From positions 54,126,001 to 54,190,000 of the forward strand of contig CM126218.1 of assembly GCA_052327205.1 (NCBI GenBank): DNA of 64,000 nucleotides, read 5' to 3'. The position numbers and the translations under genes are program-made. A model generated the notes under the pieces. That model was not told the origin of the DNA, did not search any database, and saw only the letters and a list, made by a program, of their open reading frames with translations. This document shows positions 1-59,539 of the stretch, in pieces; the first letter of the stretch is position 1; each line of letters starts with the position of its first letter. Source of the stretch: Somniosus microcephalus (taxonomy: Eukaryota).

Positions 1-1
1 C

Positions 2-2008
2 CAGCTGGACGTTAGCCAGCTCTTGTTCCAAATCCAGACATCTTTCCTGAAGAGACTTCTTCATGTGTACCTCTGCATCCAGCTTTTTCTGGGCTTTCAG
101 CAAGTCGTTTACTAGTGACCTCATTTGTGATTTTAATACTTCAACTTCCTTTGGAGATTGATTGATCGGACTATGCAATCCCTCTACCGGAGCAGCTGTT
201 TCAGCGGTCTGTTGTTCTACATTGACGTGAGTCAGCGTACTTTTGGCATCCAATGGCTGCTCTGTTGCAGTCGTTTCAGTCTGTGTCGTCACATCAGCCA
301 TCTCAATGACTTTTGAGAGCTCCAAACCTTTTTCCTTTGAAGATCGCAGCTCGTGTTCAAGTTTTTCCCATTTCAGAGTCTTGTCCCTCAGCATATGAAG
401 GAGTTGGCTGACCGTTAACTCTTCTGACACCAGATTATGGCACGCACCTTCAGAACCTGAATCAGCTTTGATTCGTTCGGCCTCCTCGCGCAGATGGTTG
501 GTGTGCTCCTGCTCCATTTTCTCCATCAGTTGCTTCTGTTGCCTTTCCAGATTCTCCCACTCTGTAACAAAGAACTTTTTTATTTCATTCATCTCTTGCT
601 CAAAACGGCGAATCATTTGTTCTAATTGCTGTTGTAGTTTGAAATGGAGTTGAGTTCGAGCCCAGTGTCCCTCAAGAATGTGCATATCAGTAGACTTGAC
701 AGACTCAGAATTCTCTGTTAAACTATGTTGTTGTTGCTCAGTGGAATTCTGTGCTGAAACTTTGTCTTTTGCACATGGGTTGGTCTTACCATCATCAGTT
801 CTAGAGTCTGGGCTGATTATCTGCACCGAGTTCTCACTCTTTATGGCTTTTAGCGAATGCCAGTCCATATTTATGTTTCTAAACCACTCCCGGCCTAGTA
901 GTGGTGGACCTCCCTCCGGTAGCACATATAAGTCCATTATTTGACTTCCTTCACCCTTGTTGGCCACTGCAACCTTTATTGTCCCGATGGGGTACACTCT
1001 CTGCCCCGTGTAGGTTGTCAATATAATCTCCGTATCCTGTAGGGGAATATGTTGGAATAACCTTCTGTAATCTTTCTTATTCATGACTGACAATGCCGAT
1101 CCAGTGTCCAATTCCATTTTTACTTGGACTCCTTCTATCTGAAGAGTAACCCAAATTGTCTGGAGGTCTGCACCCTTACCAATGTTGAGTACCCTTAAGC
1201 TAGCCAGTTCAATACTGCTTAAGCCAGCCAGTTCATTACTGCTAGCGTCTGAATCGGACTCCTGTTCGGCCACCTTGTGTACCTTTGCGTATTTTCCTTG
1301 CGGTGACTTCTTGTTGCTGGTCTTCTTCCCTGACCTGCATACTCTAGCTATGTGTCCAAGCCTACCACAAGTTCTACATTCTTGGTTTTTAAACCAACAC
1401 TGGTTCTGATCATGCGTTGTCTTTCCACAACGATAACATTTGCCAGAACTCACACCCAATTTGTGTGCACTGAGCTCCGGTGACTGTAGCTGCATTACTG
1501 CCGTGCCTCTCGCTGCGGCTTCATGTGCTGCTGCCATAGTGACCGCCTTCTCAAGCGTCAGCTCATTCTCCTCGAGCAGTTGCTTTTGTGTATCCTGTTT
1601 AAATAAACCACACACAAATTTGTCTCGTAGTGCATCTGTCAGTCCCGTTCCAAACTGGCAATATTTCGCTAATTTACGCAATTCCAGCAAATATTCAGCA
1701 TTGCTTTCATGCTGTAGCTGCCTTCTGTCGTAAAATTTAAATCGTTCCGCTAGCATCAGCGGCGTGGGGTTTAGATGATCTTTCAGGACAGTAACAATCT
1801 CATCGAACGTCTTATCCGCCGGTTCATCTGGTGATAACAGGTGTTTCAATTGCCCGTATGTCTTCGCACCCATTAAATTTAATAATGTTAGTGCTTTATC
1901 AGCCTCACGAATTTTATTGGCCTTACAATAATTTTTAACTCGTTCAACATATATGGCCCAATCTTCAATGTCACTATCAAAGTTGCTAATATTCCCGTGT
2001 TTAGGCAT
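2..2008 (-). CDS. Gypsy (Mag-like) Gag-protease polyprotein fused in frame to STK10/SLK-like and optineurin-like coiled-coil segments; 3' end runs off the window
   Basis: Hand translation of the - strand from ATG at 2008 (in-frame TAA upstream at 2018-2020) gives 669 codons with no stop. Sequence: [33 protein letters not shown]...[14 protein letters not shown]...[11 protein letters not shown]...; zinc knuckles [14 protein letters not shown] (1438-1397) and [14 protein letters not shown] (1378-1337); protease [12 protein letters not shown] (DTG at 1108-1100) and PPLLGREWF; then coiled-coil segments. It is absent from the ORF track, probably because no stop lies inside the window. Confidence 0.92.
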
Positions 2009-2568: not shown

Positions 2569-2578
2569 CTCATCGCCA
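2569..2578 (-). promoter_or_regulatory. Primer binding site, tRNA-Ser(GCT)-type
   Basis: TGGCGATGAG sits 1 nt after the LTR-terminal CA. It matches the TGGCGACGAG PBS typical of Mag-clade elements with one wobble position. Confidence 0.75.
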
Positions 2579-2579
2579 G

Positions 2580-2815
2580 TGTTAAGTCTGTGAATTATTT
2601 AGTTAATTAAGACACAGACTAATGAGTAACAATAAAAACAGGTCTTTACTGGTTGGAGGTAGGGACTATACTGAATACAAGATTACTGCACAGTGCTTAT
2701 ATACCGGTGTGTTCACCCCCGGTATTACGTCTACAGCAGCCTGAGAAAGTAGTACATCTCTTAAGGTGGAACAGGCTTAAGCTCTCTTAAGGTGGAACAG
2801 GTTACATACACAACA
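2580..2815 (-). repeat. 5' LTR (~236 bp)
   Basis: On the - strand it begins TGTTG and ends TTAACA, directly followed by the PBS. It contains TATATAAG and a duplicated ctcttaaggtggaacagg. The partner LTR is outside the window, so the outer boundary is inferred. Confidence 0.75.
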
Positions 2816-3689
2816 GTCATAACTATTTGTTGTGTAGAAAAGCCCACTCTGCTTTTGTGCGGGTGGTGATTGCCGGCACAAGTGTCGTTTTCTCATCCCT
2901 TCCTCACGCTACCTGGTATAAGGAAATAGAAGGACTTGAAAAATTGGGTATTTTTTTCGTTAGAAGGCGGCAGATTACGGGGCGATATGATAGTATTTAC
3001 ATTTAGGAAGAGCGGGTCTGGTGGCAAGAGGGTTGATTAAAAGCTGAATTCATGTTGTATGTTTGTAGTAATTCTGATGAGTTTTAAATTGACCTTCATG
3101 GATACAGTGTTTAGAATCCAGGCACGTATAGACTTTGTGTATTGATAGCCCGAGTTCACTGCTTGGGTGCTTTATCATAAAAGCGATGTCACACTTAAAG
3201 GTAGATTCTGTTTTTACTGATCTTATCACTCTTTTCATTAATATTTGAAATCTAGGACATCTTTGATATCTATGCAAAGTAAAATATTTCAGAGGATTGA
3301 CAATATCTCAAATCCTTAAATTATACTGCGGGAGTGAAAGACCTTGCTCATTCTACCATATTGGAGTGGGAATTAGGGGCGATTTTACTTTGCATAAATC
3401 ACTTACAAAAATTAAAATGAATCGTTTCAATTAGCATTTCAAAAATGCTGGTGAAAAATCTATCCCAACTGATTGCTTTTTTTATGCATATATCATCATA
3501 GCATTGGCGCTTTCTGTTTAATAGTGGTGTGTCTCTTTAATAGTGATGTCTGCACACACCTCAACTGAAATATCAGCAAACAAGCTGTTATCTGTTAATG
3601 ACTCTGGAAATCTGACTAAAACTTGCCCGCATAACTATGAAATCCTTGTTATATCCACTTATTAGCACTCAAGAATGTCAGTAAAAAGT

Positions 3690-55774: not shown

Positions 55775-56485
55775 CGAGGGGAGACAGGAGAGAGATAGCA
55801 AAGCAGAAATGAAGAGAACTGAAGCAAACTAGAAATGGACACAAAGCAAAGTAAATTAATAATCAAGAGAACTAGAGAAAGTGAAGCAAATAGAGAGAGA
55901 ACCAGATTAGAAGAAGATGAGCCAGAAAAAGACAGAAAGTGAAGCAGATAATAATGAGATATAAGTATGAAACTAGAAGAGGAGAGAGAACACAAACCAG
56001 AGGAGAGAGGGAGCATCAACCAGAAAAGGAAAAAGGGGGAGCATGAACCAGAAATGTGGGAGAGGAATAGAGAGCACGCAAACCTGAAAAGTAAAGAGAG
56101 ACATCACAAACCAGAAAAGGTGGGTGGGGAGTGATAGAGCACAAACAAAAAGGGAAGGCAAACTAGAGGGGGGAGGGGAAGAGATAGAACTATAAGGAGA
56201 GGCAGAGAGAAACAGACAAGGGTGAGAAAGAAAGGGGAAGATCTAGGCGGAAGAAGGAGAGAGGAACTCAGAATGCAAGCCGGGAAGAGAGATACACAGC
56301 AGGGAAGAGACAGAAGGAAGGAGCAGAGAAAGAAACAGAAATGGTAGAATTGAGAGAAACACAGGGGAAGAAGACAAGATTAAAAATGGATGGTGAGAGA
56401 TACCGAGAGTGAAAGAGGACAGAAACGCAAAAGGGAAGAAGACAGATGTACGCAGGGAAAGTAAGAGAAATACAGAAGGGAAGGA
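55775..56485. repeat. Purine-rich (GA) low-complexity tract
   Basis: Strong A/G bias on the + strand over ~700 bp. Confidence 0.75.
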
Positions 56486-57115
56486 CTCCCAATATGCCAC
56501 TCTCCGTACCTCCCAATATGCCACTCTCCGTACCTCCCAATATGCCACTCTCCGTACCTCCCAATATGCCACTCTCCGTACCTCCCAATATGCCACTCTC
56601 CGTACCTCCCAATATGCCACACTCAGTACCTCCCAATATGCCACTCTCCGTACCTCCCAATATGCCACTCTCCGTACCTCCCAATATGCCACTCTCCGTA
56701 CCTCCCAATATGCCACTCTCCGTACCTCCCAATATGCCACTCTCCGTACCTCCCAATATGCCACTCTCCGTACCTCCCAATATGCCACTCCCCGTACCTC
56801 CCAATATGCCACTCTCAGTACCTCCCAATATGCCACTCTCCGTACCTCCCAATATGCCACTCTCCGTACCTCCCAATATGCCACTCTCCGTACCTCCCAA
56901 TATGCCACTCTCAGTACCTCCCAATATGCCACTCTCCGTACCTCCCAATATGCCACTCTCAGTACCTCCCAATATGCCACTCTCCGTACCTCCCAATATG
57001 CCACTCTCCGTACCTCCCAATATGCCACTCTCAGTACCTCCCAATATGCCACTCTCAGTACCTCCCAATATGCCACTCTCTGTACCTCCCAATATGCCAC
57101 TCTCTGTACCTCCCA
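56486..57115. repeat. 24-bp minisatellite, ~26 copies
   Basis: Unit cctcccaatatgccactctc(c/a/t)gta repeated in tandem. Confidence 0.97.
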
Positions 57116-59539
57116 GACCCTGGGACTCAGCCACCACTACTTCGATGCCGAAAGACCCCGCACCCCCCCCCCACTTTTTCTTCAATACTCCCACATACCT
57201 CTTCTCCTCCTAAAGTCCACCTGCCCGTTCCACCGCTCCCACTCCCCTGGACCGCCATTTCAGCACTACTGAAATCATTTTCCTGCTCATCACCATGAGC
57301 AGTATCATGGCAGATCCGCTAATATGCTTAAATTTTTGAGGATTATTACCTAATTCAAAGAGAGACTGCATTGGAAAAGCATTAACTGTTCGAAGGTTAC
57401 AAACTGTTTCAAGAAGAAAATAAGCAAAAGCAATTTCCTGCACAAATCACAATAGGTTTGCGTCCATTTTGAATGAAATGGGTTGCTGTCCTATTATTCT
57501 CCAAATAAATTGAAGACTGAATTCCTTTTGAATGCTAAATGATGTAAAGTGAATAAAATTGAATTTGATTGCAGAATTTATTCATAAACCATTGCAGCAC
57601 AGAATCTACTTTACAGCTTTCAAAATACTGGTTCTTTTTAACCTAAGACTTGCTTAAATAAGGTGTAAATGTTCACTGCAAACAATGAATGAAACAGTAA
57701 GTGATCCAGAAGTCAGATTGACTCCTCTTCTTGCCATAAGGTCCCTGGCATGTAATTGCACAGTCCGTCCTCATTGCTTCCAAATTATGCACGCACATTC
57801 CACGGAGGTACTACTTAATTGGAATTGTAGATTCATGGAAATTGCATCTAATTGGAATAACAAATCATCCTGGACTATGGGGAAATAGAAGGGATTCTTA
57901 ATTTCAGTTGGTAGCCTTGAAAGTATTAATAGTTTAAAAGAAATCAAAATTAATTGAGTCAGTGCAGGTTGGGAATTTTTATAGTATTTACTCTAGAGGA
58001 TGAAGCTAATATTTCCAATCTGGTGACTGCTGCACAGATACATTCAAGTTTGCGGCGAAGACTTTGGAGCAGAAAGTCATTGGACATGAACTTTGTAGCA
58101 GAATACTCGCTAAATAGCCAGCATTCAGTTTTATGAATAAAGGGCCTTGAATGATGGTACTCAAGAAACGCATTTTTAAAGATGTTAATATTTTGTAAAG
58201 TAGATAACACCTCAGTCTAGTGGTTGTTTGTGTGTGGCGGGGGGTGCGGCGGGGGGGGAAACATATCTGTGTTCCAGTGTGATTCACTGGATGAACATGT
58301 TGCCTTTAAATCTTTGCGCAGACGTATCTAAATTTCCAAGTAATCCAGCCAGATAAGTATGTCTCTGCCCCCTTGCAGCATAGGATAGTCTGTGTATTGG
58401 GGAAACCTGCTTCTCAGTTTTACGTTTTTCAAATGATGCTCTTGAGTATAAAATTAATGAGCTTTAAGAAAGACTAGAACATAGAACAGCAAAATAATAG
58501 GAAGGAAAAATTAAGTATTATGCATGCAGGCAAACTTACAAGCAGAGAACTACTTGGCAATGCATTGTTTTCACCTCAGTGGAGACTTGCTCAGTGACAT
58601 AACCCATCAGGCCTGGGAATCACTCTTTTTGATGCTCATTGCATTACCTATATCTGTGAAGCTGCTGCAGCTTCCTCTGTTATCTAGCGTGTGATTATAT
58701 TGACATCTCCCTGTCTACTATGTGCACCTGTACATGTGAAGTCACGATGCACTAGTAATTGGGCACAACACAGTTATTTCAGGGCGACTTCTTATGTTGT
58801 TCTGAACATTTCTGTTCTGTGGTTTGAACCGTCTCCACTTGTCATCTTCCTGGTTGAGACCTCCGCTACTTAAACTAATCATTTAAAATATATTTCATTT
58901 GCTGGCTGAACTTCGGAACACTTGTTAATTTCCATAGAAAAAAGTTGGCAGTGTCAGATCAACGGTTAGTCTGTAATAACCAGTCAGCTACACTTGGCTG
59001 TGAAGCACTTGGGGATGTCCTGAAGTTATGAAGAGCGCATATTCAATCAGCTTTATTTATGACTGAAGCATTTTAGGTTATCCCGATAAGCATTCAATAT
59101 GCTGACACACTCTATTCAGTCCTCGGCCTCTATGTGTCACTGCCATGTGCCAAACGGCCTGAGGCACTGTGTTATCTATTCAGTTGATTTAGTGAATACA
59201 GGGTTCCTGTTTCTGAATGATCTGCTGTGCCCTTTCATAATGTGACAGAATGCAAAAAGACAAAGCAAAGAACCATAAAAAAGGAGAAAGGGCAGAGGCA
59301 GCTCCATTTATCTTGGCTTTATTCATATGTGTTAACCAGTTAAGAGAATGAAAAGCCAAGATAATAGGAAACAATAGATATGGCCAGCCTGAAAGGAAAA
59401 GAATTGCTGTGTCACACCAAACAAAATCAAAGTAGTCATTAGTCGTTCACTTTCTCCAATAAAAACGGAAGGTCAGGCAGCATCTATGGAGAGAGAAACA
59501 GAGTTCACGTTTCAGGTCTTTCATAATTTTTAATAACTT

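Follow-up and report, generated by a model that had tools for sequence, protein, structure and literature searches.

In retroviral oncogene transduction and in gag-only non-autonomous LTR elements, pol is replaced by host cDNA fused to gag, and propagation depends on a helper. For LTR-mediated retrocopies, the part of Tan et al. (2016, PMC5131818) used here gives 15 polymorphic loci in fly and 3-10 copies per species elsewhere, with decay frequent among the older ones. For circRNA-derived pseudogenes, the corresponding part of Dong et al. (2016, PMC4897178) names the reversed exon-exon junction as the mark of circRNA-derived sequence, reports 33 high-confidence copies of mouse circRFWD2 and leaves the mechanism open. 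Maize Bs1, according to the passages that we draw on (PMC5131818, PMC7264820), is an LTR element with exonic pieces of three host genes, present in 1-5 copies across Zea. The shark element analysed here joins LTR-mediated retroposition to circRNA-derived retrocopies at an unusual scale. Its main interest is the probably circRNA-founded, serially capturing family to which it belongs rather than the optineurin (OPTN) fragment that had been noticed in a sequence-only reading.

The window, i. e. the whole stretch of 64,000 nt that was analysed (G000:C17:54126001-54190000), lies in the 6.4-Gb genome of a cartilaginous fish whose nearest named matches are from Pristiophorus japonicus. It contains most of one young copy of a non-autonomous Ty3/Gypsy LTR element of 3,630 nt, which became complete when the adjoining stretch was added (L021:6186-9815). 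The 5' LTR (236 nt, TG...CA; 2580..2815, minus strand) is 99% identical to the 3' LTR, which lies outside the window at L021:6186-6421 (G000:C17:54125186-54125421). The 5-bp target site duplication (ATGAC) is found at 2816..2820, with its twin 815-819 nt left of the window edge. A primer-binding site (TGGCGATGAG; 2569..2578, minus strand) stands just after the 5' LTR, and a purine tract precedes the 3' LTR outside the window. Thus the LTR pair with TG..CA ends, primer-binding site, purine tract and duplication of a Ty3/Gypsy element are present along with gag, CCHC knuckles and protease; a relative that does carry Pol has a similar LTR end and primer-binding site (73% over 86 nt). The single ORF and the pattern of gag would tentatively place the element, which has no reverse transcriptase (RT), in the Mag clade. 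No tRNA genes were found in the window, which at ~56400-57300 also holds a tandem array of a 24-nt unit with repetitive open frames on both strands.

The single ORF of 771 codons (P0002) runs on the minus strand from position 2008 to position 1 and on to L021:6693, 308 nt past the window edge. Its order is gag, two CCHC knuckles, protease, STK10, OPTN, a DNAJC21-like zinc finger and a basic tail. The gag capsid region (1484..2008, minus strand, as are all parts of the ORF) has 35-47% identity to many gag and gag-pol proteins and 57-58% to Pol-bearing relatives in the same genome. The two zinc knuckles of the nucleocapsid (1334..1438) are visible in the translation and were hit under the cut-off by Pfam zf-CCHC (E 0.003) and zf-CCHC_5 (E 0.035); the aspartyl protease (878..1150) has an intact DTG and an equally sub-threshold match to gag-asp_proteas (E 6e-5). 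The enzymes of an autonomous Ty3/Gypsy element, i. e. RT, RNase H and integrase, are absent. A relative, P0063, has the order PR-RT-RH-IN. In the window element the place of pol is taken by host RNA pieces that form a mosaic in the ORF's frame. The mosaic begins with a piece of the large STK10 exon B with an internal deletion (663..840; 89-94% DNA identity to the host exon, BLASTP match to P0035 400-479). It is followed by the STK10 PKK coiled coil from the spliced exons D and E (462..673; 88-95% DNA identity, Pfam PKK E 6.5e-12, over the cut-off), for which 18 of 21 protein matches were named STK10 and all 21 were kinase+PKK proteins. Two OPTN pieces come next: one of 43 nt from an exon upstream of the leucine zipper and LIR (428..470; 91% identity), which meets STK10 at a 9-nt microhomology, and the main piece (1..434; shark OPTN ~228-384), in which four host exons are joined near window 330, 159 and 43 with the introns gone and which ends 12 nt past the window edge.

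The OPTN fragment had been recognized as a central coiled-coil segment inside a retroelement ORF, in a minus-strand frame at 2-452. This reading was right: the frame reads as described, it is the 3' part of the ORF starting at 2008, and the fragment is fused to it in frame. All 23 matches obtained among 580 candidates with residues 520-680 of P0002 were named optineurin, so OPTN is the best significant match; 21 were from sharks and rays and two from paddlefish, the best being Pristiophorus japonicus (69% over 157 aa, E 2e-47). It had been proposed that the assignment should fall if the similarity vanished with composition-adjusted scoring. Against Pristiophorus japonicus OPTN at a database size of 1e12, E-values stayed between 1e-35 and 1e-47 in composition modes 1-3, with and without SEG, and hence the proposed test does not refute the assignment. 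The ESM Atlas returned OPTN as a lead at 0.89-0.90, no Pfam model covers the central OPTN segment, and a PDB sequence search with window 2-700 gave no match. The suggested comparison with the host gene, which lies on the same contig (G000:C17 ~85.872-85.906 Mb), showed four consecutive exons at 77-95% DNA identity with three introns removed at exact splice sites. Because the piece joins host exons exactly at the splice sites, it derives from spliced mRNA, a conclusion that we regard as virtually certain. In the host gene itself (L027, ~85.8848-85.8854 Mb) the end of an exon carries an additional A, and TPT stands in the place of TQT, when compared with the elements and other sharks; this may be a true allele or a mistake in the assembly. 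A loss of TQT in the host was considered and rejected as unreliable, since the same exon pair carries the extra A relative to the elements and this may be an assembly error.

The sequence-only reading placed the start of the fragment downstream of the LIR and TBK1-binding region. The capture, however, first included the leucine zipper and an FVEI motif, which were deleted later in the window's subfamily. The OPTN part begins at window 470 rather than 434, with 43 nt of an upstream exon (470-428) joined to the main piece where 258 nt of OPTN were lost at a 7-nt microhomology (junction 428-434). Copies of the parent type (L067-L085) contain OPTN ~131-384 in six exon pieces with five introns removed; five of the six are 95-97.5% identical to the host, and one with a deletion is at 87%. 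Their OPTN includes a segment with weak matches to the solved OPTN chains 9IKQ and 9M0O in a PDB sequence search, and their FVEI is presumably the OPTN LIR. The portion of PMC7072226 consulted places the OPTN LIR at Ser177. At the other end, the ubiquitin-binding UBAN domain that might have followed beyond the window edge is absent. The piece stops at shark OPTN residue ~384, and the DNAJC21-like zinc finger and basic tail stand there instead; neither UBAN nor the OPTN zinc finger was captured in any of the copies examined, and Pfam found none of the full-length OPTN domains PF11577, PF16516 and PF18414 in P0002. The OPTN part of the window element is no functional optineurin, as its match to this autophagy receptor comprises only residues 228-384 plus 14 codons, with FVEI deleted. 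An LC8-binding role had been suggested for the TQT motif (278..286, minus strand). TQT is present in 20 of 20 window-type copies and kept in 18 of the 24 OPTN-bearing loci surveyed; its loss in the other six and an omega of ~0.7 for the OPTN segment leave this role unsupported, and a literature search for optineurin, LC8 and TQT together found nothing. The sequence-only reading also missed the wider setting: the same ORF holds captures of STK10 and DNAJC21 on a permuted STK10 scaffold, pol is gone, and the copies are very many.

In a survey of the wider family with the PKK model, 150 of 16,569 first-look candidates were scored and 30 loci fetched. Of the 30, L037 is a 3' STK10 retrocopy without introns, and the other loci, among those listed, belong to related gag-protease elements whose cargos vary. 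In three sister elements (L089, L090, L137) STK10 is the sole cargo, with residues 385-704 followed by residues 290-388. Compared with the host STK10 gene on C8, the cargo of L089 enters in mid exon B, continues over C and D, leaves E at its exact donor, proceeds at the exact acceptor of the upstream exon A, and runs through A into B, back to its point of entry. It is 98-99% identical to the host, and entry and exit overlap by 11-14 nt. The five exons total 1,245 nt, in frame, which is one full turn. Within the 150 kb of the host locus that were covered, exons A and E are present as single copies, and of 11 introns examined the two that flank the circle are the longest (15.5 and 8.0 kb); no inverted repeat shared by the two was found. 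The E-to-A join motif is present in 28 of 29 element loci (L038-L066), and the exact 29-mer across the junction has 884 copies in the genome (reversed-pattern control 0). Homology at this join is the shared AG alone, whereas other switches in the family lie mid-exon with 4-9 nt or more. An exact donor joined to an upstream acceptor is seen in sister copies and not in the window copy, where OPTN replaced the back-splice junction; yet the permuted order survives there, as exons B, D and E lie ahead of OPTN, and what is left of A and B is found at the stop and beyond it. The permutation is very probably the signature of a back-spliced circular RNA, a circle that we infer from the DNA and did not observe in RNA; RNA reads across the junction would be ambiguous, as transcripts of the 884 genomic copies would mimic a circle junction. 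An LTR element that has kept both switch points, the back-splice junction and the length of one turn points to template switching in the particle.

Three further observations concern STK10 itself. Host exon C (G000:C8, L119) appears to end at a GC rather than a GT donor. The intronless 3' retrocopy (L037/L142, G000:C3:~354.658 Mb) comprises residues 753-977 at 97%, from exons downstream of the circle, with no LTR pair seen. At G000:C8:2305443-2305640 (L100) an STK10/SLK-like kinase match (85%) lies within an 823-codon open frame and is possibly another retrocopy.

The sister subfamilies allow the captures to be ordered: STK10 only (L089, L090, L137), STK10 plus DNAJC21 (L098, L131), and these plus OPTN with its LIR (L067-L085). 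In L098 and L131 the DNAJC21 piece was added inside STK10 exon A, and L098 has an early end in another frame. OPTN then replaced the back-splice region between two microhomologies. Microhomology at the switch points is 9 nt for STK10/OPTN, 7 nt for the OPTN deletion and 4 nt for the STK10 deletion. The C2H2 finger after OPTN gave nine matches, all of DNAJC21 architecture and weak (E 0.007-0.39); in less diverged parent copies it shares 71% identity over 52 aa with DNAJC21 of fish. Neither PF21884 (two hits, unmatched by the fish protein) nor a 76-aa query led to the host DNAJC21 gene, and so the DNAJC21 donor rests on protein similarity. Other subfamilies carry other cargo. In one (L086-L088, L091, L135, L136, L141), three to four I-set Ig repeats are inserted in STK10 exon A; they are titin/obscurin-like, and these genes are candidate donors. 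L091, L135 and L136 have an extra CxxC-containing insert after the protease, L094 has a further in-frame coiled-coil cargo, and L138 and L139 have a further in-frame insert of ~150 aa that had no Pfam match and is possibly BAZ1A-like. Only ~3 kb past the 3' LTR of the window element lies a diverged member of the family (L122:4266-7646, G000:C17:54117266-54120646) with LTRs 97% alike and an open frame of 1,127 codons. It encodes gag-protease, STK10, two extra coiled coils, OPTN from EELTV onward and the DNAJC21 finger. The extra coiled coils, presumably EVI5-like and ANKRD24/RAI14-like, obtained no name from Pfam or the ESM Atlas. No protein with gag plus cargo was seen among the best 150 of 21,613 representatives, whose best stretches end by residue 437, or among 21 matches for residues 385-525.

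The family is abundant and young. By exact counts, each with a reversed-pattern control of 0, the 29-mer across the STK10-to-OPTN junction has 2,619 copies and the OPTN deletion junction of the window type at least 1,627. Of 1,028 window-type candidates 40 were scored, all of them 99-100% identical over 699 nt. LTR pairs are mostly 97-100% alike, and 13 of 20 fetched window-type copies keep the full ORF of 752-771 codons with the basic tail. The family is also transcribed: in two runs, 11,280 of 16.7 million and 9,447 of 14.4 million reads aligned at >=94%, a figure that may include sister subfamilies and, in the OPTN bins, host mRNA. These reads cover the whole element and leave the flanks almost empty; in X19 they are ~10:1 in the sense direction, and in X20 both strands are alike. 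Both runs bear the label of a species with the element in its DNA, a label that may not be the host's. In two further runs (labels A and C), contigs are found over 30 and 27, respectively, of the 30 bins. Loose read ends at L021:7424 (187 and 201 reads) fit the junction of the neighbouring L122 element into OPTN. As for the source of Pol, a related family with open frames of 1,322 codons exists in the genome. Its LTR end and primer-binding site resemble those of the window element, but with 57% gag-protease identity in the copy compared it is only a candidate helper. An exact pol parent and helper was not found; the nearest Pol-bearing relative is at 57% in gag-pro.

Gag-protease and cargo differ in how they have changed. 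When the window copy was compared with five parent copies by NG86 without transition correction, gag-protease had a dS of 0.85-1.2 and an omega of 0.13-0.21. The cargo had a dS of 0.17-0.20, with omegas of 0.33-0.43 for OPTN, 0.33-0.39 for STK10 and 1.2-1.6 for DNAJC21. As the dS of gag-pro is far above that of the cargo, the cassette sits on a backbone much more distant than its own divergence. In codon models omega peaked at ~0.25 for gag-protease (11 copies), at 0.65-0.8 for OPTN (10 copies) and at 0.5-0.65 for the 43-codon PKK piece. For OPTN, omega=1 lies 1.5 log-units below the peak, and its test is model-dependent (p 0.009, 0.074, or not significant). Single-hit changes in STK10 and OPTN were 24 S/30 N between groups and 24 S/58 N private. 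Gag-protease is under purifying selection and presumably still does work; the cargo may be under mild purifying selection. With an omega of ~0.7 OPTN is nearly relaxed, and hence most likely a passenger in a frame kept open. Relative to parent L079, eight of nine alignment gaps inside the ORF are multiples of 3, and the ninth (16 nt, near the 3' end) shifts the ORF end into a frame resembling a DNAJC21 basic stretch. In parent types the end of the ORF is an arginine-rich variant of the tail that the integrase has in the Pol-bearing relatives. A basic tail is reached via different frames in different subfamilies.

Overall, we think it likely that the element is a host-RNA mosaic captured by template switching, in which OPTN is mainly a passenger in a selected open frame. 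RT in the particle would have switched templates onto co-packaged host RNAs, in the manner described by Tan et al. (PMC5131818). The first template was very probably the back-spliced STK10 circular RNA, copied for one turn and replacing pol; that only a single turn was made is plausibly due to RNase H destroying the template behind the enzyme. In later subfamilies the DNAJC21-like zinc finger and then spliced OPTN were inserted within the STK10 scaffold at short microhomologies. In the window subfamily, the OPTN leucine zipper and LIR were deleted, the cassette stands on a diverged gag-protease backbone, and amplification has reached >1,600 copies, with Pol probably supplied in trans by related autonomous elements. 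The selected trait would be an open frame that ends near the 3' LTR in a basic tail, not an OPTN function; such a frame could allow escape from nonsense-mediated decay and/or translation-coupled packaging, and the basic tail could be a stand-in for the integrase tail. We lean towards this passenger and open-frame reading.

A different interpretation is that the cargo acts as protein, with coiled coils and zinc finger, fused to gag or released by the protease, aiding the particle in trafficking, multimerisation or RNA binding or as decoys for OPTN and STK10 partners, and the LIR purged because it sent particles to autophagy. Nearly every cargo is indeed a coiled coil, Ig repeat or zinc finger, the NG86 omegas for OPTN and STK10 (0.33-0.43) are low, and the cassette outlived the change of the gag-pro backbone. 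The LIR is deleted in the window type and absent from the neighbouring L122 element, and of 231 OPTN columns only that of its phenylalanine shows three different replacements among four derived lineages; this comparison was made post hoc, and the codons ATT, AGT and CGT could stem from one loss and subsequent drift. According to the part of PMC4982230 consulted, L1/Alu RNA and the Ty1 particles of yeast are restricted by autophagy. However, OPTN omega is ~0.7-0.8 across lineages in the codon model, the DNAJC21 part exceeds 1, TQT is lost in six of 24 loci, and the identity of the cargo differs freely among subfamilies, which makes functional cargo rather doubtful. A more far-reaching version, which we consider unlikely, would have the family as a running exon-capture platform: one circSTK10 turn in the place of pol, a Gag-protease-cargo polyprotein that samples coiled-coil and zinc-finger exons (OPTN, DNAJC21, Ig repeats and others) and is tuned at the protein level, with the OPTN LIR repeatedly purged as an autophagy mark and the basic tail kept for nuclear entry. 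At the opposite extreme, captures might be accidental with no selection on frame or cargo, the open mosaics resulting from microhomology bias, youth and ascertainment. Microhomology switching between coding sequences favours in-frame joins, the copies are young, and most loci were found by protein searches, which are biased to long open frames; in the section of Tan et al. (PMC5131818) cited, 14 of 17 young fly retrocopies are in frame, possibly through youth. Yet the neighbouring L122 element, which was found by its position, keeps its 1,127-codon frame despite heavy divergence, even though a stop would result from ~4.7% of point changes in the OPTN part, and subfamilies arrive at the basic tail through different frames. 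We hold pure hitch-hiking to be quite unlikely.

A separate question is whether, instead of a circle, recombination inside the element or a linear RNA, made by trans-splicing or from tandemly duplicated exons, could have given rise to the STK10 permutation. Non-colinear junctions can arise otherwise, as stated in the part of Dong et al. (PMC4897178) at hand, the flanking introns share no inverted repeat, and we found no literature on circSTK10. Against such origins stand exons A and E, which are single in the 150 kb of the host locus covered, and a join that is exact at both splice sites and has only AG as homology, in a family that otherwise switches in mid-exon. In addition, entry and exit coincide within ~14 nt of 1,245. 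A non-circular origin is therefore quite unlikely, and the reading of the STK10 cargo as one turn of a circular RNA is retained below.

On this reading the STK10 capture would be a direct record of circRNA write-back into genomes. In this family, moreover, exon shuffling by an LTR element has reached thousands of copies in the germ line of a vertebrate, and the intermediates show in what order the captures took place. With purifying selection on gag-protease next to relaxed cargo, it offers a natural experiment on what makes non-autonomous elements retain long open frames. A practical risk is that copies are mistaken for STK10, OPTN or DNAJC21 paralogues, and their transcripts for circRNA reads, in shark data. 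No description of this shark family was found in the literature searched; Repbase and subscription journals lay outside the search, and closer cases may be found in the supplements of the two 2016 papers by Tan et al. and Dong et al. Retroviral oncogene transduction and gag-only elements resemble the shark family in that pol is replaced by host cDNA fused to gag and a helper is needed. Unlike transduced oncogenes, the shark family is germline-amplified, has no env and carries a multi-gene mosaic with relaxed cargo. With the LTR-mediated retrocopies, as far as the cited part of PMC5131818 describes them, it shares spliced host mRNA in place of part of the internal ORF between both LTRs, microhomology at the switches, several parental genes, sense orientation, transcription and further rounds as non-autonomous elements. 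It differs from them in being a mosaic in one frame with a gag-protease under purifying selection, in its thousands of copies, in continuing to add cargo and, probably, in having started from back-spliced RNA. Bs1 likewise is an LTR element carrying exonic pieces of several host genes, but the descriptions of it in the passages cited (PMC5131818, PMC7264820) contain no circular RNA origin or ongoing serial capture. The circRFWD2 pseudogenes, in the cited part of PMC4897178, share with the shark copies the reversed exon-exon junction, the lack of poly(A), the LTR association and the presence in multiple copies. In contrast to these pseudogenes, the 884 exact shark copies are set between the protease and the integrase tail of an LTR element that can be identified, and their STK10 cargo is one full turn, in frame, that founded a protein-coding TE family.
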